A DNA stretch of 64,000 nucleotides, from positions 85,698 through 149,697 of the forward strand of contig CAVTIO010000009.1 in assembly GCA_963734935.1 (NCBI GenBank). Direction: 5' to 3'. The notes under the pieces are model-generated. The model was not told the DNA's origin. It made no database searches and worked only from the letters and a program-made list of their open reading frames with translations. Positions within the stretch are counted from its first letter, which is position 1; every line of letters begins with the position of its first letter. Positions 7,901 to 40,438 of this stretch are shown one piece after another. The stretch comes from an uncultured Chloroflexia bacterium. GTDB lineage: Bacteria; Chloroflexota; Limnocylindria; Limnocylindrales; CSP1-4. The position numbers were made by a program, and so were the translations under genes.

Positions 7901-8041
7901 TCGCCCGCTGATCTGCCCCGCATGTGGGGCGCCGACCCACCCCTCCTTCTCGGCGCCTCACGAACGACCCCCGGACACCCATCCGGGGGTCGTTCTGCGT
8001 CTCCAGCAGCCCCACCGTGATGGCGCGACGCAACGGCACGG

Positions 8042-9461
8042 TCAGGCACCGGGCGGTGGCTGACCGACCTCGCTGAGCGCCTGGCGGTAGATCGCTTCGC
8101 CGTCGATGCCGAGCGCTGGCGAGCTGACGCTGGCGAGGTCTGCGACGAGTCTCAATTCCAGGTGCTCGTGGGTGAGGGTGTCGATGAGACGGACGGCGCG
8201 TGCGGCGGCCCGCATCACCTGGTGCGTCTCGGTCCGTGCCGGGTCGTCCCAGAACCAGCCGTCCGAGGCGAACATCGCAAGGCGCCAGCGCTGCGCCTCG
8301 AGCAATGTCAGCAGGTGGCGACGATCTCGCGGCCGTGCGTCCCGGCCGAGGATATCCAGCGCGAACGCCTTTGCCGTTGTCGCACCCGTGACCACGTCCA
8401 CGTAGCGGTCCCTCGCGTCCCACACGTCGTCCAGGCTGCGAACCTCGAGCGCGCTCGTCTCGGTGGCCTCGTCGATGGCGCCCGCCAACCGGTCGAACGC
8501 GGATCGCAGCGGCGCCTTCCATCGTCCGTCCGGGACGTCCGGGCACTCGGCGTGCCAGCGAAGGACCCCGTGGTGGCAGCTCCACGAGGAGCGATCCCGG
8601 ATCCGGATCTCCGGACGAACGGCGTCGCCCCCAAGGCCGACTGCAGTGGCTATGTCGGTCACATCGAAGCCTCGGTCGACGCCACCCGAGCCCGGATCCA
8701 CGAGCCGCTCGAGGAACAGGTCTCGGAAGGACTGGTGGTGCCCGTAGAGCTCGCCGTCGGTGGCGATCACGACCATCGGCGGGTTCCCGTCCGGCAGCGG
8801 TTGCGCGAGGCGCGGCGCGACGCGCTCGCGGGCGAAGCGATCGGCATCGGCAGTCGCCGCCGGCTCGAACGACACGGCGCCCGACAGGTCGCCATCGTAG
8901 AACGCCACCGTGAGATGCTGACCCGCTCCGAGCTCGACGCGATACGGCTGTCGGGTGTCGAGATGCGGGTCGTCGGACTGCCACGGTGCCAGGAGTCACG
9001 GCCTCGATCCCGGCTGACCCGAGCGTTCGCAGGGTGGCCATGTCCACGGCCGCCTCGGGCAGCCACATGGCCCGCGGACGGCGGCCGAACCGGAGCTCGA
9101 AGTCACGAATCCCCCAGGCCACCTCGGTCCGACGGTCGTGCGCGGCTGACAGGGGCAGGATCGAGTGGTGGAAGGCCTGCGCGATCCCGGTCCCGCCGCC
9201 ATCCCGGTCGCCCGCCGCGAACCCGGCCAGCACCTCCGGTGCCTCGGCAGCGAGATAGTCGGTGAGGGTGGGGCCGGCATCCCACGAGATGTGGCCCGGG
9301 ATACCGTGCTCGGCGATCGGCCGGTAGCACTCCTCGGTGATCCGGGCATTCCAGTCCCGGTATGGCGCGGCCGATGGATCGGGCGGGATCTGGTTCGAGA
9401 ACGGGTCGATGCGGAGGGGCTGATAGAAGTGGGCGTGGACGACCAGCCGGCCCCGCGTCAC
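8042..9461 (-). pseudogene. GH57-family glycoside hydrolase, disrupted by a frameshift (or sequencing error) near 8990-9010
   Basis: The 5' part (frame of ORF 7893..9461) reads LVVHAHFYQPLR...WGIRDFELRFGRRPRAMWLPEAAVDMATLRTLGSAGIEAVT, a GH57 N-terminal HxHxPxxR motif. Translation then degenerates. Shifting +1 gives LLAPWQSDDPHLDTRQPYRVELGAGQHLTVAFYDGDLSGAV...VVIATDGELYGHHQSF (GH57 catalytic region) continuing to the stop at 8042 (ORF 8042..8908). Confidence 0.6.
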
Positions 9462-25736: not shown

Positions 25737-28058
25737 ATGCGCTACAAGGCGCTTTCTCCGACCATGCGAACCAGCTCGCCGGCGAGCGCGACCGCGAGTC
25801 TGGTGCCGAGTCGCGGTTCGCGATCGGCCCACCGTTGGCGCTTCGCGGGCGTGGTCATGTCGCTGACGCTGCTGCTGCTGGTTCTGCCCTGGGCAGCAGC
25901 CAGTGCGGCAGCCACCCTGGAGGTCGCCCCCTCGGTCGCGCGAGCGGACACGCAGGTCACGGTTCACGGTCAGGGGTTCGCCCCGCACACGCGGGGCTCG
26001 CTCTCGTTCGACGGCGACGACATCGGGATGCCCACCTACCGGACCCGCCGCGATGGATCGTTCAGTACGGTCATGACCGTGCCGGCGGACGCGACCGTCG
26101 GGGATCACGTCGTCACTGCGGCCTCCGGCGGCAACGGCAAAGGCAAGGGGAATCAGTCCCGGGTCTCGTCCGTCTCCGTGACCATCACCGTCGACGCGCC
26201 GACGCCTACCCCGACTCCCACTCCCAAGCCGACTCCCACCCCCACCCCCACGCCCACGCCAAAGCCAACTCCAACTCCCACGCCGACTCCCACGCCGACT
26301 CCCGCCCCCACGCCAACTCCCACGGGTACGCCGACTCCAGCTCCCACGCCGACTCCCACGGGTACGCCGGACGGCGGATCGGATGTCCAGCCCGCGTTCC
26401 CCATCCGGGCGGCCTTCTATTACCCGTGGTTCCCGGAGGCCTGGAACCAGCAGGGCCTTGACCCCTTCACGAAGTACCATCCGACGCTCGGCTACTACGA
26501 CTCGAGCGCATCCTCGATCCTCGCCGCGCACCTCGCGGCGTTCAGGTACGCGGGAATCCAGGTGGGTATCGCCTCGTGGTGGGGCCCGGACAGCCGCACG
26601 GATAGCCGCATTCCCACGATCCTGGCGGCCACGGCCGGAACGTCCACGCGCTGGACGGTCTATGTCGAGTCCGAGGGGCAGGGTGATCCATCCGTGAACG
26701 AGATCGCCTCCGACCTCACGTATGTGCGGGACCGCTACGGCTCCGATCCTTCGTATCTGCGTGTCGACGGGCGCTTCGTGGTGTTCGTCTACGCGGACGC
26801 CAACGATGGCTGCGGCATGGTGGATCGCTGGAGGAGTGCCAACGCCAATATCAACGCGTACCTTGTTCTCAAGGTGTTTCCCGGTTACCGGGCCTGTGCC
26901 GGCCAGCCCGACAGCTGGCACCAGTACGCCCCGGCCTCTGCGGAGGACAGCCAGGCCGGGTACAGCTTCAGCATCAGCCCCGGGTTCTTCAAGGCCAACG
27001 AGTCGACCCCGCGCCTCACGCGCGACCCGGCCCGATGGGCCCAGAACGTGCGTGACATGGTCGCGTCGCATGCCCCCTGGCAGCTCGTGACCACCTTCTC
27101 CGAGTGGGGTGAGGGCACGGCCGTCGAGAATGCCGCCGAGTGGAACACGATCTCGGGCCACGGAAGCTACCTGGACACCCTGAACCTGGATGGCCAGGTC
27201 TCCACGCCCACTCCCACGCCAACGCCCACCCCCACACCGATTCCCACGCCGGTGCCGACCGGCGACCCGATCCTCGTCGGGGCCGGTGACATCAGCTCCT
27301 GCTCCTCGAGCGGCGACACGGCCACCGCTGCCCTGCTCAGGTCCATCGGTGGCACCGTGTTCACAGCGGGCGACAATGCGTACGAGTCCGGTTCGACGAC
27401 CGAGTACGCCAACTGCTACGACCCGACCTGGGGTCAGGAGCTGGCGCGGACGCGACCCGCGCCGGGCAACCACGAGTACGGCACCGCGGGCGCCGCCGGC
27501 TACTTCTCGTACTTCGGCGCCGCCGCCGGCGACCCGTCGCAGGGCTGGTACGCATACGACCTGGGTGGATGGCGCATCTACGCCCTCAACAGCAACTGCA
27601 GCCAGGTTGGCGGTTGCGGGGCCGGATCACCCCAGGAGGCGTGGCTCCGATCGGACCTTGCGGCCCACCCGGCTGCGTGCGTCGCCGCTTACTGGCACCA
27701 TCCCCGGTTCTCGTCGGGTGAGCACGGGAACCACACCTCCGTCCAGACGTTGTGGCAGGACCTGTACGACGCCGGCGCCGAGATCGTGATGACCGGCCAC
27801 GATCACGACTACGAGCGCTTCCTGCCGCAGACGCCAACGGGCACCATCGACACGGCACGCGGCCTCGTGGAGTTCGTGGTGGGCACAGGCGGCAAGAGCC
27901 ACTATGCGATCACCTCAACGGTTGCCAACAGTGCCGTTCACGACGACTCAACCTATGGAGTCCTGAAGCTGACCTTGCACGCCAACAGCTGGGATTGGGC
28001 GTTCATTCCGGCCTCAGGTGGGACGTTCACCGACGGCGGCAGCGCCAACTGCCATTGA
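25737..28058 (+). CDS. Secreted multidomain protein: Ig-like domain, Pro/Thr linker, GH99-like domain, Pro/Thr linker, metallophosphatase (calcineurin-like/PAP-like)
   Basis: GGAGG SD 7 nt before the ATG at 25737. Hydrophobic signal region [17 protein letters not shown]. Linker [24 protein letters not shown]99-like [12 protein letters not shown]...[15 protein letters not shown]...[14 protein letters not shown]. Metallophosphatase GDISSC...GDNAYESG...GNHEY...GHDHDYERF. Confidence 0.7.
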
Positions 28059-32588: not shown

Positions 32589-35500
32589 CTATTGCCCGAC
32601 GACGATGGTCAGCGTGGGCGGCGTGGTCGTCTCGCGCGAGGCGAACACCTCCTGGCTGCCGCCCGTACCCTGAGCGACCGTGAGGACGTTGCCCTCCGCC
32701 GCCGCCACGAGGCTGGCGACGTCGGTGGACGTCACGACGCCCGGGCCGCAATGGGTGGCGGTGGTGTCGACGGCGGCGCCGACGGCCGGGCGACTGGCAT
32801 AGGTGATGGTCCCCTCGTCCCAGGCGGATCCATCGGTGTCATACACGGTGTAGCCGATGCCCGCGTTCTTGCTGCACTGGTAGGTCAGGGTGAGCGTGGC
32901 GGACTGCACCGCCCCCGCGACGTTCGAGAGATCGAACGCCATGTAGCTGTACCACGTTGACTGCCCTGATCCCTTGATGCGCAGGCCCGTGCTCGTCCCG
33001 TAGTTCGAGGTCGGGCTGTCGCTGGACACGTAGCTGTCCTGGATCGGGTTGAGCACGAAGGTCTGGCTCGCATCGGTAGTCACCTGGTTCGACGGGTCGC
33101 TGAGCGGCGAGTGGTTGCCCGCCGCGTCGAACGCGTCGACCGTGTAGCTGTGCGTGGAGCCCGGCGCCAGGCCGGTGTCCGTGAACGCCAGGGTCGCCCC
33201 GTCCACGGTCGCGACCGGGGTTGTGTCACTGTCACGGTAGACGTCGTAGCCGGTCACTCCGACGTCATCGGTCGAGGCACTCCACGACACGTCGATGATC
33301 GAGGAGCCATTGACCGTGGCCGTGACCGAGCCTGGCGCCGTTGGCGCCTGGCTGTCGCCACCGACCGTGATCGTGGTCGTCGCAGGCGTGCTGTCCCCGT
33401 ACAGGTTCGAGGCGACGAGGGACACCGTGTAGGGGCCGGCTGCGGCCCAGGCATGGCTGGGATTGGCTTGGGTGCTCGTCGACCCGTCCCCGAAGTCCCA
33501 CGCCCACGCCGTCGGGCTGCCACTGCTGGTGTCCGTGAACTGGACGGGCACGCCCACCGTCGGGCTCGTGGTCGAGGAGGTGAAGGACGCGGCGGGCGCG
33601 TCCGTCGCGCCCGTCCCGACGACGATGGTCAGCGTGGGCGGCGTGGTCGTCTCGCGCGAGGCGAACACCTCCTGGCTGCCGCCCGTACCCTGAGCGACCG
33701 TGAGGACGTTGCCCTCCGCCGCCGCCACGAGGCTGGCGACGTCGGTGGACGTCACGACGCCCGGGCCGCAATGGGTGGCGGTGGTGTCGACGGCGGCGCC
33801 GACGGCCGGGCGACTGGCATAGGTGATGGTCCCCTCGTCCCAGGCGGATCCATCGGTGTCATACACGGTGTAGCCGATGCCCGCGTTCTTGCTGCACTGG
33901 TAGGTCAGGGTGAGCGTGGCGGACTGCACCGCCCCCGCGACGTTCGAGAGATCGAACGCCATGTAGCTGTACCACGTTGACTGCCCTGATCCCTTGATGC
34001 GCAGGCCCGTGCTCGTCCCGTAGTTCGAGGTCGGGCTGTCGCTGGACACGTAGCTGTCCTGGATCGGGTTGAGCACGAAGGTCTGGCTCGCATCGGTAGT
34101 CACCTGGTTCGACGGGTCGCTGAGCGGCGAGTGGTTGCCCGCCGCGTCGAACGCGTCGACCGTGTAGCTGTGCGTGGAGCCCGGCGCCAGGCCGGTGTCC
34201 GTGAACGCCAGGGTCGCCCCGTCCACGGTCGCGACCGGGGTTGTGTCACTGTCACGGTAGACGTCGTAGCCGGTCACTCCGACGTCATCGGTCGAGGCAC
34301 TCCACGACACGTCGATGATCGAGGAGCCATTGACCGTGGCCGTGACCGAGCCTGGCGCCGTTGGCGCCTGGCTGTCGCCACCGACCGTGATCGTGGTCGT
34401 CGCAGGCGTGCTGTCCCCGTACAGGTTCGAGGCGACGAGGGACACCGTGTAGGGGCCGGCTGCGGCCCAGGCATGGCTGGGATTGGCTTGGGTGCTCGTC
34501 GACCCGTCCCCGAAGTCCCACGCCCACGCCGTCGGGCTGCCACTGCTGGTGTCCGTGAACTGGACGGGCACGCCCACCGTCGGGCTCGTGGTCGAGGAGG
34601 TGAAGGACGCGGCGGGCGCGTCCGTCGCGCCCGTCCCGACGACGATGGTCAGCGTGGGCGGCGTGGTCGTCTCGCGCGAGGCCAGGTTGATCGTGCCCGC
34701 ATAGCCGGTGAGGCCGAGGCTCAGCAGGCCACCCTGGGCAGGCGCGACCAGCGAGTCGACATCCGCCGACCCGTAGACACCCGACGTGAGCGGCCCGGAC
34801 GAGTTCACCACCGCGCCCATGTCAGGCGCGGTGTCGTAGACGATGGCGTACTCATCCCAAGTGGTGTCCGCGACCCCGGCCACGCCGAAGCCCTGCGAGC
34901 CCGTCGTCGTGTTCGACAGCACGCCGAGCGTAGCCGACTGGATCTGCCCGACCACGTTGGAGAGGTCGAACTTGAGGTAGCTCGCCGTCCCGCTCGAGTT
35001 GACGTACAGCGAGGTCGCTGTTCCGCGGTTGGTCGTCGGGATCGATGGGTTGACGTACGCGTCCGCGATGGGGGTCAGCACCAGGGTGACCGTGCCGCTG
35101 GGCGTCGTGGCGGACGCGGGCCCACCCGGCGGTGACCGGTTGCCGGCAGCATCGAAGGCCTCAACGGTGTAGCTGTGGTTGGAGCCGGGCGCCACGACCG
35201 TGTCCGCATACGCGAGCGTGTCCGGGTCAAGGGTCACGAGTGGTGTGGTGGCGTCGTCCTTGAACACCTCGTAGCCGGCGACGCCGACGTTATCGGTGGC
35301 GGCGTTCCAGGTGACGTCAATCTCACCCGGACCGTTGGCCGCTGCCGACACGGAGCCGGGCGCTTCGGGGGCGATGCTGTCCGCGGTTCCCTTGCAGGAA
35401 AGGAGGCCGCTGTCCTCCACCGACCCGGTCGGGGTCTGGAACGAGAAGGTCGCGCTGGTCGGGAACAGGTTCAGGCGGAGCGCCCCGAAGTTGGCGAAGT

Positions 35501-36963
35501 CAGCCGCCACCAGCCGGGAGTCCGTGACCACCTGCTCCTGGTGTCCGTGCCCCCCCGAGCCGACGATGATCTCGGTGATCCCATTCGGGTCCGGGTTCAG
35601 GTTGCCGTCGACAGGCTCGAACCGCTGGTAGTTGTGGTCGTGGCCGTTGAGCACCAGCGTCACGTTGTGCTGGGCGAGCAGAGACCAGATGGCCGACATC
35701 GAGGCTGTGGAGCCCTCAGGACCCGTGTTGAGCAACGGATGGTGGTAGTACACGACGGTGCACGGCGACGCGTTGGCGGCGAGATCGGCCATGAGCCACT
35801 TGTACTGACCGGAGTTGGTCGCCGTCTGACCGAACTGGCTGGTCGAGTTGAGCGCGATGAAGTGCCAGCCGCTTGCGTCGTAGCTGTAGTAGTCGGGGAT
35901 GTTGTCCCAATAGTAGAAGTACCCGGAGGCATCGTTGCCCGTGTACTCGTGGTTGCCGATCACCGGGTTGGTGATGCTTCGGAACTTGCCATACATGCCG
36001 GCCGTGCCGTCCGGCCCGTACCAGTTGTCGAACTCCGTGGGCAGCCCGTCTTCGTACACGTCGCCCAGGTACAGGAACAGGTTGGGGTTCCAGGTCCCGA
36101 TCAACCCGACTGTGCCGATCTCACCAGGTTCCCCACCGGCACCGTCGCCGGTCGCGGCGACCACGAACGGCGATCCCGGAGCGGGCGTCGTCCCCTGCGT
36201 GGGCACGAACTGGTTCGGGTTGGGCGGCGGTGTTTGGTAGCCGTTGGCGAAGGTCAGCGTGATGTTGGCGGCGGCGCTCTCCCAGTTGTCCCGCATGAGG
36301 GTGGTTGCGCCCAGCTCGTAGGTTCCATCACCGAACCGGGCGGTGTCGAGGGTGAACGTATAGGGCGAAGTGAAGTCCGTGATGAGCCGTGAGCCGTTGA
36401 GGGTGAAGTAGGCGCGGCGGATGCCGGGGCTGTTCGAGTCCTGAGTGACCTCCAGCGTCACGTCGGTTGTGCCCGTGAGCGTCGCGTTGTCGCCGGGCGC
36501 AGTGATGCACAGCGTCACGCTGTAGCCGCCAGGCCCGCTCGTGTTGCACGTCGCCGTCGGCGTGGGTGTGGGCGTGGGCGTGGGCGTGGGCGTGGGCGTC
36601 GGCGTGGGCGTGGGCGTCGCGGTGGCTGTCGCCGTCGGCGTGGGCGTCGGCGTCGGGCGTCGGCGTGGGCGTCGGCGTGGGCGTGGGCGTCGCGGTGGCT
36701 GTCGCCGTCGGCGTGGGCGTGGGCGTCGCGGTGGCTGTCGCCGTCGGCGTGGGCGTGGGCGTCGCGGTGGCTGTCGCCGTCGGCGTGGGCGTCGGCCGCT
36801 GGTGGCGTTTCGCGTCGACGACGGTCGCTCCCTGGGCGAGGATCCCAGAGGCCAGGATCACGACGCCGAGCACGGCGAGCAGGCGCGGGCCCCTACCGGA
36901 GGCAGGTGGGTTGGGGCGTCTGGGAGACCCGGTCGAGGAATGGCGCTTGACGACGTGGAACAT
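32589..36963 (-). CDS. Giant secreted surface protein: signal peptide, PT-repeat linker, metallophosphatase, FN3, DNRLRE domain, then (PKD-FN3-DNRLRE) x 2. Apparent +1 frameshift in the linker.
   Basis: An intact 1309-aa ORF (32589..36518) has metallophosphatase motifs GDVYEDG...GNHEY...GHDHNYQRF, FN3-like segments, DNRLRE-like ASYLKFDLSNV and PKD-like WAWDFGDGSTSTQANPSHAW. The same frame continues upstream as PTPTPT. The signal peptide MFHVVKRHSS...RLLAVLGVVILASGILAQGA and the TPTPTPTATATA repeats (ORF 36328..37242) are in another frame. A single extra G near 36655-36657 (cgtcGGGcgtcgg vs the cgtcggcg pattern) separates the two frames. Confidence 0.6.
32595..34682. repeat. Exact tandem duplication, 2 x 1020 bp (32595..33614 and 33615..34634) plus a 48-bp partial third copy
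   Basis: Identical secondary ORFs are offset by exactly 1020 bp (32885..33073 = 33905..34093; 33254..33523 = 34274..34543). Sequence comparison at the unit junctions confirms identity. It encodes a duplicated 340-aa PKD-FN3-DNRLRE module. Confidence 0.85.
36560..36795. repeat. 36-bp tandem repeats encoding (TPTPTPTATATA)n Pro/Thr/Ala linker
   Basis: Direct repeats of cgcggtggctgtcgccgtcggcgtgggcgtgggcgt on the plus strand. Confidence 0.7.
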
Positions 36964-37024
36964 GACGAGCCCCCAGTGCCTGTTCAGGTTCGCGGAGTCT
37001 GCCGGCTCATGCCGGTTGATCTTC

Positions 37025-38785
37025 TCATCCATCGCCCACCGTGCCCTCGACGTCCTGCGCATAGGCAACGGACAGGGCACTCGAAGTGGACATGGCACTC
37101 GCTGCACTGGACATCGGTGCGCCACCGGCGGCGAGCGGCGACGGTTGCGTTGCGGGCAGCGTATCTGGCAGGCCCGGGCCGACGGCAACCATTGGACCCA
37201 TCTCGGGCGTGCCGGGGCCCACGGCAACCAGCGGCGGCTCATCGATCAGGGCGGGCAGCCGGTCCGCCCAGCCGTGACCGGGCGTCCGCAGGTGCCAGCG
37301 CCTCGCGTTGGTGATTGCGGACCGCAGCAGCTCGGCCTCGCGCCGTCGGAGCTCCGGGTAGTCGAGACCGTCGATTCGAATCTTCGGCGCGAACAGTGCG
37401 AACGGCGGGAAGCCGTACGCATCGTCCGTGTTCTCGAGCAGAACATCGACGGCCTCGTCCAGGGAGACCTCGGCCTCGCGCTCCTCGCCACGCTCCATCA
37501 GCACGATGTTGCGGATCGGCGCGCGCTCGGCGACCGAGCACTCGAACAGGTCGTTGATCCGATGCTTGGGCGGCGGCACGACGAACTGGACGAGTGAGTT
37601 CACCGTCATGATCGGCAGGTTCCGATCGCCGAGCGCCCGTCCGACCTGGCGACCGGACTTGGAGTGCAGGCGGCTCTGGATTGCCAGCTTGGCCCGATCG
37701 CCCACCGTGAGACGGCCGTCCTTGGCGACACCCATCGTGTGGAACGAGAGTGTCATCGGCTTCGGGTAGCAGATCGCCACCCCGGCGGGGTCGATGATCG
37801 TCATGTCGTCCGAGAGGAACTGATAGCCACGGCGCCGGACAAGGGTGATGACCGTGCTCGTCTTGCCGGTATCAGTCTGTGCTGACAGCAGCGTGGCACC
37901 GTGCTCGCCGGCGAGCGCCGCGGAGTGGAGCAGCACATAGCCCCGCGAGACGAGCAGGAAGCGCAGGAACGCCTCGACGATGTTCGTGTACACGACGTGG
38001 GGCGAGATCGCCAGGATGGGGCTGACCTTGATCTCGATCGGGGTGCCCATGCGGAGCGAGAAGTTGGCGGCCACGGGGCCCAGGTGCTCCTGATAGACGA
38101 GCTCGTCGCCCTGCTCACGGAACGTCACCTTGGTGCGCAGTCCCTTGCCCACGAACCCGATCCGGATGCGGATGTCTGGCGATCGCCCCTCGGCCACTGC
38201 AAAGTGGCGCAGCTCGCGCAGCTCCACGTCGGATTCGATGGCCAGAATTCCGGCGAGGTCGTAGTGATGACGAGCCGCCTGCTCGCTAACGATCGGTCCA
38301 ACCCCCGCCGGCGCCGTACCGGCCAGGGCGGCCTCCTGCCGATTTCCCCACAGCAGCGTGTCGGCAACCAGGAGACGGAACAGGAACAGGACGACGAGGG
38401 AGATGGCGTTGGACAGGGCGTAGTGCAGGCCAAGTCCATCGGTCAGGCCCCAGAGCATCGGGACGCGAAGAACCAGGAGGCCGAAGTTCAGGCCCAGGAA
38501 GGCCAGGTATCGATTGGACCGAGACCCACGAACGCCGCGATCCGCGAACGCCCATGTGTCGGCCCAGAAGAAGTTCCAGGTCGAGGAGCCGACCGTCGCC
38601 AGCACCGCCGACACGAGGTAGTAGATCCCGAGCAGCTCGGTCGCCACGACCACGAGGATCTGATTGACCAGGAGGCCCGATAGCCCCACCAGGCCAAATC
38701 GCACCCAGCTCGCGATCCGTCCCCGCCCGGGGCCCAACGGCGCAAGCTCCGCCGCCTGTCCCACTTCTGCTGCTTCTGCTGCCAT
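37025..38785 (-). CDS. GtrA-like membrane domain fused to HprK-C-like P-loop (kinase-like) domain
   Basis: AGGAG-cgga-ATG at 38785. GtrA-like 4-TM region RFGLVGLSGLLVNQILVVVATELLGIYYLVSAVLATVGSSTWNFFWADTWAF. C-terminal region LLHSAALAGEHGATLLSAQTDTGKTSTVITLVRRRGYQFLSDDMTIID resembles the HPr kinase C-terminal P-loop (LlHgs...G.sGsGKSe.al.L...G..lvaDD). The extension to 38890 is Arg/Ala-rich and is preferred not to be coding. Confidence 0.6.
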   Translation of the reverse strand: MAAEAAEVGQAAELAPLGPGRGRIASWVRFGLVGLSGLLVNQILVVVATELLGIYYLVSAVLATVGSSTWNFFWADTWAFADRGVRGSRSNRYLAFLGLNFGLLVLRVPMLWGLTDGLGLHYALSNAISLVVLFLFRLLVADTLLWGNRQEAALAGTAPAGVGPIVSEQAARHHYDLAGILAIESDVELRELRHFAVAEGRSPDIRIRIGFVGKGLRTKVTFREQGDELVYQEHLGPVAANFSLRMGTPIEIKVSPILAISPHVVYTNIVEAFLRFLLVSRGYVLLHSAALAGEHGATLLSAQTDTGKTSTVITLVRRRGYQFLSDDMTIIDPAGVAICYPKPMTLSFHTMGVAKDGRLTVGDRAKLAIQSRLHSKSGRQVGRALGDRNLPIMTVNSLVQFVVPPPKHRINDLFECSVAERAPIRNIVLMERGEEREAEVSLDEAVDVLLENTDDAYGFPPFALFAPKIRIDGLDYPELRRREAELLRSAITNARRWHLRTPGHGWADRLPALIDEPPLVAVGPGTPEMGPMVAVGPGLPDTLPATQPSPLAAGGAPMSSAASAMSTSSALSVAYAQDVEGTVGDG

Positions 38786-39609: not shown

Positions 39610-40438
39610 CGATCTCTGGTCCTCCCCTCAATGCGAGCACCCTGGACGGGTGTCGCCCCTTTGACCCCGGGCCCAGATCCCGATGCCGGGTACCTGAAGC
39701 CGCCGCCGGCCCTGCCGGCGTGCACCTGTACGTGAGCCGGCACCGCCTCCCGTTGCCCGGAGCCGGAATCACATCCGTGGGTAGCCGTCGGCTCGGAATG
39801 CCGGCCTCGCCGTGCCTTCCGTGTACCCCTCCCGGTCGATCCCGGTGTCGCCGATCGAACCAGCCCGCTGATGCCGGTCGCGCCCCTTTGGGCGCACATC
39901 CGTCGGGACGAATCCCGTGATAAGTGCCGGCTCCTCGCACCGAACGCCCTCCGCCCTCGGTGCTATGGAGACCCTGCTCGGACCTATGATTTGAGCCCCT
40001 GTCGGCGGATACCCGCCGGCCGACGCGCCCCGGAGTCTCATACCCCAAAGGTCCTGCGTCAAGGGGGGACTTATGGCAGGGTAGCGGGCCGCTCGGGTTG
40101 CGATGCGTGACCTCGCCTGGCCTCCCACGCGCCGGTTCTGGCCCATGTCTACGTTCACGGAGCGCATGGCAAGCACGACAGGACGCATCCTGGCGAAGTG
40201 ACTGTGGCAGGCACTGGACTAGATGGGAAGGTTGCGGGGTTTCAGCTCCGGGGGAGAAACCGTTGCCGCTGAGCACCATTGGACCGGTCCATGCGACCGT
40301 CGCCACCGCGTCTCAGCTCACGGTCGGCGTGACCCGCCCGGGGCCCATGTCGCGGTGGTTGACCATCGCCAGGATGGACTGACCTCTCCCGCCCGTGAGA
40401 CGATCGCCCTGGAACGGCATTGCAGGAGGAGGGTCAGG

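Follow-up and report, generated by a model that had tools for sequence, protein, structure and literature searches.

A one-base frameshift in the Pro/Thr linker of a predicted secreted phosphatase gene from an uncultured Chloroflexia bacterium: most likely a residual consensus error of long-read assembly

Results

Gene organization at the locus

The window, by which we mean the whole 64,000-nucleotide stretch of contig CAVTIO010000009.1 that was analysed, contains on its minus strand a large gene that, in the sequence as given, is distributed over two reading frames (Table 1). Three-frame translation of the minus strand shows that the signal peptide, which begins at ATG 36963 with MFHVVKRHSSTGSPRRPNPPASGRGPRLLAVLGVVILASGILAQGA, and the ensuing TPTPTPTATATA repeats share the frame of ORF 36328..37242. 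The signal peptide has a basic n-region and ends in AQGA, with a hydrophobic core of 15 residues (LLAVLGVVILASGIL) in between. The body of the protein sits in another frame, which carries the Pro/Thr reading onward before the GTG codon at 36518. Downstream of window positions 36654-36657, the Pro/Thr reading passes to this +1 frame, which runs through the end of the linker to ATCNTSGPGGYSVTLCITAPG and is that of the 1309-codon body ORF (32589..36518). The split had been described in a sequence-only reading of the same DNA, and both the coordinates and the description given there are correct.

Removal of one base at the site yields a continuous ORF with a terminal stop only. The repaired protein consists, in order, of the signal peptide, a PT/TA linker, Big_7, Metallophos (purple-acid-phosphatase-like), fn3 and CBM96 domains, and two copies of a PKD-fn3-CBM96 module. 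The Pfam E-values are 6.8e-10 for Big_7, 2.1e-8 for Metallophos, 1.6e-11 for fn3, 6.6e-48 for CBM96 and 1.5e-15 for PKD_4; PKD is matched as well, and CBM96 is matched twice or more. Among proteins of solved structure, purple acid phosphatases are closest to the catalytic domain. No stop codon interrupts the 1309-codon body, every domain in it is intact, and over 3.9 kb it is 1 nt apart from contig_27804, a conspecific contig described below. The body is called as a 1309-aa ORF in both the source contig and contig_27804. The latter also carries an identical 1020-bp duplication; since the duplication is exact and identical in the two, it is reproducible and must be very recent.

We looked for an alternative start with its own signal peptide in the body frame and found none. 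Upstream of GTG 36518, this frame meets a TGA at 36860, with no ATG, GTG or TTG between and nothing hydrophobic, and the sole alternative start, CTG 36848, leads into an Arg-rich stretch that is not hydrophobic. A separate short gene made up of the signal peptide and the linker was also considered and rejected. Its tail is an out-of-frame reading of Big_7, and no homologue has such a gene; the true frame across this stretch is the body frame, with the Big_7 match and a conserved C-x-TSGP...VTLCI motif. The two arrangements that the sequence-only reading had itself set against a single split gene are accordingly absent in the one case and ruled out in the other.

Several features of the neighbourhood were recorded. 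Between 18806 and 31911 lie genes for a PMT_2 glycosyltransferase, two PF04185 phosphoesterases, a GH99/GH71-like protein and two GH99-like/Metallophos (purple-acid-phosphatase-like) fusions with in-frame PT linkers. They form a cluster of probable secreted enzymes, which may serve extracellular phosphate scavenging or phosphoglycan processing. The PMT_2-family glycosyltransferase is encoded near the phosphatase gene, and in actinobacteria, enzymes of this family add O-mannose to PT linkers. A minus-strand gene (37025-38785) that lies directly upstream of the phosphatase gene and adjoins a GT2 gene fuses a GtrA-type transmembrane domain to a C-terminal part of ~400 aa, which has a Walker-A-like motif (AQTDTGKTST) and no Pfam match. 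No gene is called in the unusually long spacer that separates the divergent GT2 and MoxR genes (39610-40222), and a glycogen/trehalose cluster lies further out from the phosphatase gene.

Table 1. Features of the split phosphatase gene (window coordinates)
Feature	Position	Strand	Description and basis
Whole gene, one base removed	32589..36963	-	1457 aa; translation with single terminal stop, Pfam, homologue architecture
Signal peptide, aa 1-45	36829..36963	-	Translation; equivalent in homologues, in frame with the body
Pro/Thr(/Ala) linker	about 36555..36796	-	36-nt unit of ACGCCS hexamers; TRF, composition, translation
Frameshift site	36654..36657	-	ACGCCC[G]ACGCCG; one base over the hexamer register and relative to the conspecific contig
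Out-of-frame tail of the signal-peptide ORF	36328..36653	-	Reads DADAHADGDSHRD; not real coding
Body ORF as the gene caller sees it	32589..36518	-	1309 aa from GTG 36518, without signal peptide
Exact tandem duplication of the PKD-fn3-CBM96 module	32595..34682	-	Unit 1020 bp; 1068 nt self-identical at shift 1020

Linker repeat and frameshift site

The linker tract is 242 nt long with 81% GC, and its longest homopolymer is G3. TRF reports a period of 36 with 6.7 copies and 87% matches, and a period of 6 across the same span, confirming the GC-rich 36-bp tandem repeat that had been proposed at the site. The plus strand at 36640-36670 reads GTGGGCGTCGGCGTCGGGCGTCGGCGTGGGC, in which a GGG run occupies 36655-36657 in the context CGTC-GGG-CGTC. 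It had been proposed that the two frames can be joined by dropping one base at this run. This holds, the result being the 1457-aa ORF, with one refinement: what contig_27804 lacks is the plus-strand C at 36654, beside the GGG run, and not a G of the run. Deletion of C 36654 or of a G of GGG leads to the identical TPTPTP reading. On the plus strand, opposite the coding strand, a (GGGCGT)n array at 36564-36596 contains canonical G-quadruplex motifs, which may add to replication or sequencing trouble in the tract.

Homologous genes

In 18 of 18 homologues with a readable N-terminus, comprising the best 15 genome loci and 3 ENA/JGI contigs, the signal peptide is in frame with the body. In the genome loci, the body frame extends upstream into a signal peptide directly before a C-x-TSGP..Y-x-VT-V/I-C motif, and full-length database proteins, P0001-P0003, P0010 and P0011 among them, have the same in-frame arrangement. 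PT linkers are likewise carried by the closest homologues; in the closest genome locus (69%), the linker also precedes the motif. These closest homologues are 58-69% identical with the same domain order, and originate from metagenomes and MAGs labelled Limnocylindria or Chloroflexia, some Actinomycetota. The protein search gave 58-68% identity to P0001-P0009 and no match above 68%. With the N-terminal body region, no conspecific copy was found in genome contigs or among the matches listed for metagenome contigs, the best identities being 69% and 61%, respectively.

Three database proteins (P0004, P0005 and P0008) have gene calls that start inside the Big_7 motif, like that of the window, and were considered as further split cases. 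This was rejected, their upstream DNA being open and in frame with a signal peptide, i.e. these are start-codon miscalls. As none of the homologues examined has the split architecture, the split belongs to this lineage or assembly alone, and the upstream ORF does not represent a gene in its own right. The proposal of one gene whose signal peptide and linker are cut from the body by a +1 shift within the PT repeat is borne out by these homologues, in which the parts are fused in frame. A Microflora Danica long-read MAG (MFD06085.bin.1.42) has two mutually cancelling frameshifts in its orthologue, at ~6415 and ~6845 of locus L015, ~430 nt apart, as judged against an intact protein (P0007) that is 95-98% identical.

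Conspecific contigs

Exact look-up of neighbouring proteins led to the ENA assembly ERZ25039500, which contains at least two co-occurring strains with linkers unlike in repeat number. Its contig_5800 is 99.9% identical to the window and stops before the phosphatase gene, and its contig_27804 is 99.6% identical over ~28 kb and covers 21.3-49.6 kb of the window. Opposite window position 36654, contig_27804 has a gap, i.e. the extra base is absent. The reading frame of the contig_27804 linker is broken by three insertions of its own: +C, located 6 nt beyond that position, +CG and +G. Its TP reading accordingly changes frame three times within 150 nt and ends net +1, so that both long-read assemblies share a net +1 offset of the signal peptide versus the body. 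Outside the linker, the window and contig_27804 differ by 40-odd substitutions and one 1-nt indel in ~27 kb. Against that background, four frame-breaking events in 242 nt have a Poisson P of ~3e-10. The single indel outside the linker is intergenic, at 39779.

The PT linkers of these co-occurring, 99.6%-identical strains also vary in frame. The differences amount to 24 and 6 nt in the target linker (36723-36751 and 36572) and to 12 nt, relative to contig_27804, in another PT linker (26274), which looks like ordinary repeat-number polymorphism. A Logan contig (L088, run ERR11594398) matches the window at 99.95% and independently covers the signal-peptide region; it ends at 36767 inside the repeat, short of 36654. 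No short-read assembly that we found spans the site.

A second single-base insertion in the window

A second split gene was detected by a GC3 frame plot together with Pfam hits. In a GH57/DUF3536 gene on the minus strand (9461..8042), an additional base at 8997, GT[G]ACTCC, breaks the reading frame, and repair of the gene extends the GH57 match from profile positions 82-169 to 82-261 and raises the score from 39.9 to 63.1 bits. The gene is whole at 472 aa in four conspecific assemblies, namely a JGI contig (L170, 99.3% identical), contig_27804 and two Logan contigs. Since the base is absent from all four, the window's source, a 437,959-bp contig present in NCBI and ENA, carries at least one private single-base insertion. 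Two genes are broken among about 55 in the window, and ~45 others have full-length domain matches.

Two further candidates were rejected. A third frameshift, hinted at by the GC3 plot at ~26365-26385, coincides with an in-frame PT linker, and the signal is false because the low complexity of the linker gives high GC3 in two frames. A 288-aa JGI fragment of GH57 (P0127), considered as support for the GH57 frameshift, comes from a contig of 904 nt and represents a contig-edge effect. At 8024, in an intergenic region, the window is without 20 nt that are present in the JGI contig L170.

Discussion

We conclude that the frameshift is most likely a residual one-base consensus insertion of a long-read metagenome assembly, located in a length-polymorphic GC-rich repeat and absent from the DNA of the organism. 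The frameshift is most probably not a genuine biological element. An artefact of this kind would be expected to be missing when the same species is assembled independently, and to occur in an error-prone region or in the company of other private indels. The extra base is absent from contig_27804, the linker of that contig contains breaks of its own, and the window contains the private insertion at 8997. The true gene would probably be a single minus-strand ORF of ~1457 aa encoding a secreted or surface protein. Its predicted layout probably comprises a Sec-type signal peptide, a Pro/Thr/Ala linker of ~80 aa, a Cys-bracketed Ig-like Big_7 domain, a purple-acid-phosphatase-like metallophosphoesterase and fn3/CBM96/PKD modules.

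The origin of the assemblies is consistent with this conclusion. The related contigs have Flye-style names, and the exact 1-kb tandem repeat is resolved in them, implying long reads. MAG contigs of the Microflora Danica long-read project are named in the same style, and it is in one of these MAGs that the orthologous gene shows two frameshifts. This project used Nanopore-only data, Flye and one Medaka round, the latter explicitly to cut indel errors (PMC12313526). Presumably, the window's source is an assembly of the Nanopore/Flye/Medaka type, a tie of ERZ25039500 or of the window's source to the Nanopore project being suggested by contig naming and accession proximity. Reads of co-occurring strains with unlike repeat numbers might then have been polished together, and such mixed-read polishing could put hexamer-unit fragments (G, C, CG) into the consensus. 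Each inserted piece (G, C, CG, G) occurs as a sub-string in the ACGCCS hexamer, and no decay of the body is seen downstream of the shift.

Some observations nevertheless speak against a consensus error. The net +1 shared by both assemblies would be a ~1-in-3 coincidence under independent errors, and it also fits a real shared frameshift plus extra noise. In addition, Nanopore errors classically fall in long homopolymers, and this site is not one.

The main rival explanation is that the extra base is real, i.e. that a recent private frameshift has detached the signal peptide, so that the gene in this strain is a young pseudogene or yields a fragment that stays in the cytoplasm and is not exported. 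The shift is, after all, present in the sequence as given, and the net +1 of contig_27804 slightly favours this possibility. GC-rich tandem repeats with G-quadruplex motifs on the plus strand are plausible hotspots of replication errors, and two broken genes among ~55 are within the range for real pseudogenes. However, contig_27804 is without base 36654 and has its own breaks at other positions, and three breaks crowded into 150 nt of a single gene of a single strain suggest a technical rather than a mutational origin. The other broken gene of the window, GH57, is whole in four conspecific assemblies, and the 1309-codon body has remained intact with no downstream decay. On balance, we consider a real private frameshift unlikely.

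Another reading is that the G-quadruplex-forming hexamer array is a true indel hotspot and that both strains are really net +1, with export of the purple-acid-phosphatase-like surface enzyme switched off, or kept low via tRNA-Pro +1 slippage at CCC-G. The linker would then be a contingency locus without a classical non-triplet repeat. We regard this as very improbable.

The sequence-only reading had offered two explanations, a sequencing or consensus error and a slipped-strand phase-variation switch. The former is well supported by contig_27804 and by the private insertion at 8997, and the latter, under which the linker would act as an on/off switch for the export or expression of this surface protein, is more improbable still than the hotspot reading. 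In this large secreted protein the repeats directly follow the signal peptide, which is the layout of Neisseria opa genes, the linker length varies by 24 and 6 nt between co-occurring strains, and both assemblies are out of frame. Phase variation by simple sequence repeats, however, calls for a homopolymer of at least about 7 nt or a non-triplet repeat unit within the ORF or promoter, and for relatives that toggle frame by unit number. The units here are 6 and 36 nt long, so that gain or loss of a unit keeps the frame, and the longest homopolymer, G3, is far under hypermutable tract lengths; slippage there cannot switch the frame. The length differences relative to contig_27804, 24, 6 and 12 nt, are all in frame, including that of the other PT linker of the window, which varies by 12 nt in frame only. 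The 1-nt differences consist of insertions of various bases (G, C, CG, G) at scattered points and not of changes in tract length, and the split architecture is in no homologue examined.

The most improbable explanation is that the extra base is real and is bypassed by programmed +1 frameshifting at ACGCCCGACGCC, some ribosomes making the full-length secreted protein as tRNA-Pro slips from CCC to CCG at CCC-G. CCC-N sites are prone to +1 slippage by tRNA-Pro, as known from work on m1G37 and EF-P, and a P-site CCC to CCG shift at ACG-CCC-G-ACG would restore TPTP exactly; but the slippery codon is followed by neither a stop nor a rare codon (CCC-G, then an ordinary GAC, the zero frame being open for 108 more codons to 36328), the C-rich upstream mRNA has no Shine-Dalgarno-like stimulator, all other CCC-A/G codons of the linker would be equally slippery, and neither the site nor a two-ORF layout is conserved, the site being missing from the 99.6%-identical contig_27804 and from all homologues examined, with 18 of 18 readable ones in frame.

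The consensus error, as the preferred explanation, has a practical meaning for long-read MAGs, in which single-base consensus errors can split large secreted proteins that have PT-type tandem-repeat linkers. The body ORF is then called without its signal peptide (here 1309 instead of 1457 aa) and would be mislocalised as cytoplasmic. When such splits are read as phase variation or recoding without read-level checks, false positives result. The useful outcome in the present case is a corrected gene model, 32589..36963, for a predicted secreted protein of 1457 aa. If the shift is real, the gene would be only a young pseudogene, one member of a putative phosphate-scavenging gene cluster.

Comparison with known systems

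The layout of the locus recalls the opa genes of Neisseria, with CTCTT repeats in the region coding for the leader peptide. In both cases the signal peptide is followed by a repeat tract and then by the mature surface protein, and the frame offset decides the translation of the mature part behind the signal peptide. Unlike opa, the linker described here has 6- and 36-nt units and no hypermutable homopolymer, and its 1-nt differences are not changes in unit number. With programmed +1 frameshifting of the prfB/RF2 type (tRNA-Pro at CCC-N), it shares a +1 shift on a Pro codon that would restore the frame, whereas a stall codon, a stimulator and conservation are all lacking here.

As a linker, the tract resembles the PT boxes of secreted Gram-positive enzymes, such as CenA and Cex of Cellulomonas fimi, in being a low-complexity (PT)n spacer made from GC-rich short repeats, whose length here varies in frame between strains. 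In contrast to the PT boxes, which separate catalytic and binding domains, it links the signal peptide to the first Ig-like domain.

The protein as a whole agrees in domain complement and order, and in the N-terminal Cys motif, with a metagenomic family of secreted Big_7-Metallophos-fn3-CBM96(DNRLRE)-PKD proteins, which JGI annotates as 'PKD repeat protein' or 'chitodextrinase' and whose catalytic domain is nearest to purple acid phosphatases (best solved-structure hits). The window copy differs from the family by an extra, exactly duplicated PKD-fn3-CBM96 module. It also differs by a signal peptide that is out of frame as sequenced and comes into frame, as in the family, once one base is removed.

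The closest parallel to the frameshift itself is found in the residual indels of Nanopore-only Flye/Medaka contigs and MAGs (PMC12313526). Like these, the insertions described here are isolated, 1-2 nt long, and interrupt genes that are intact apart from them. They are confined to one assembly and missing from others of the same species, JGI and Logan contigs among them, and they are clustered in a strain-variable tandem repeat, the related contigs being Flye-named. The site is unlike this error class in that it is a G3/hexamer repeat and not a long homopolymer.
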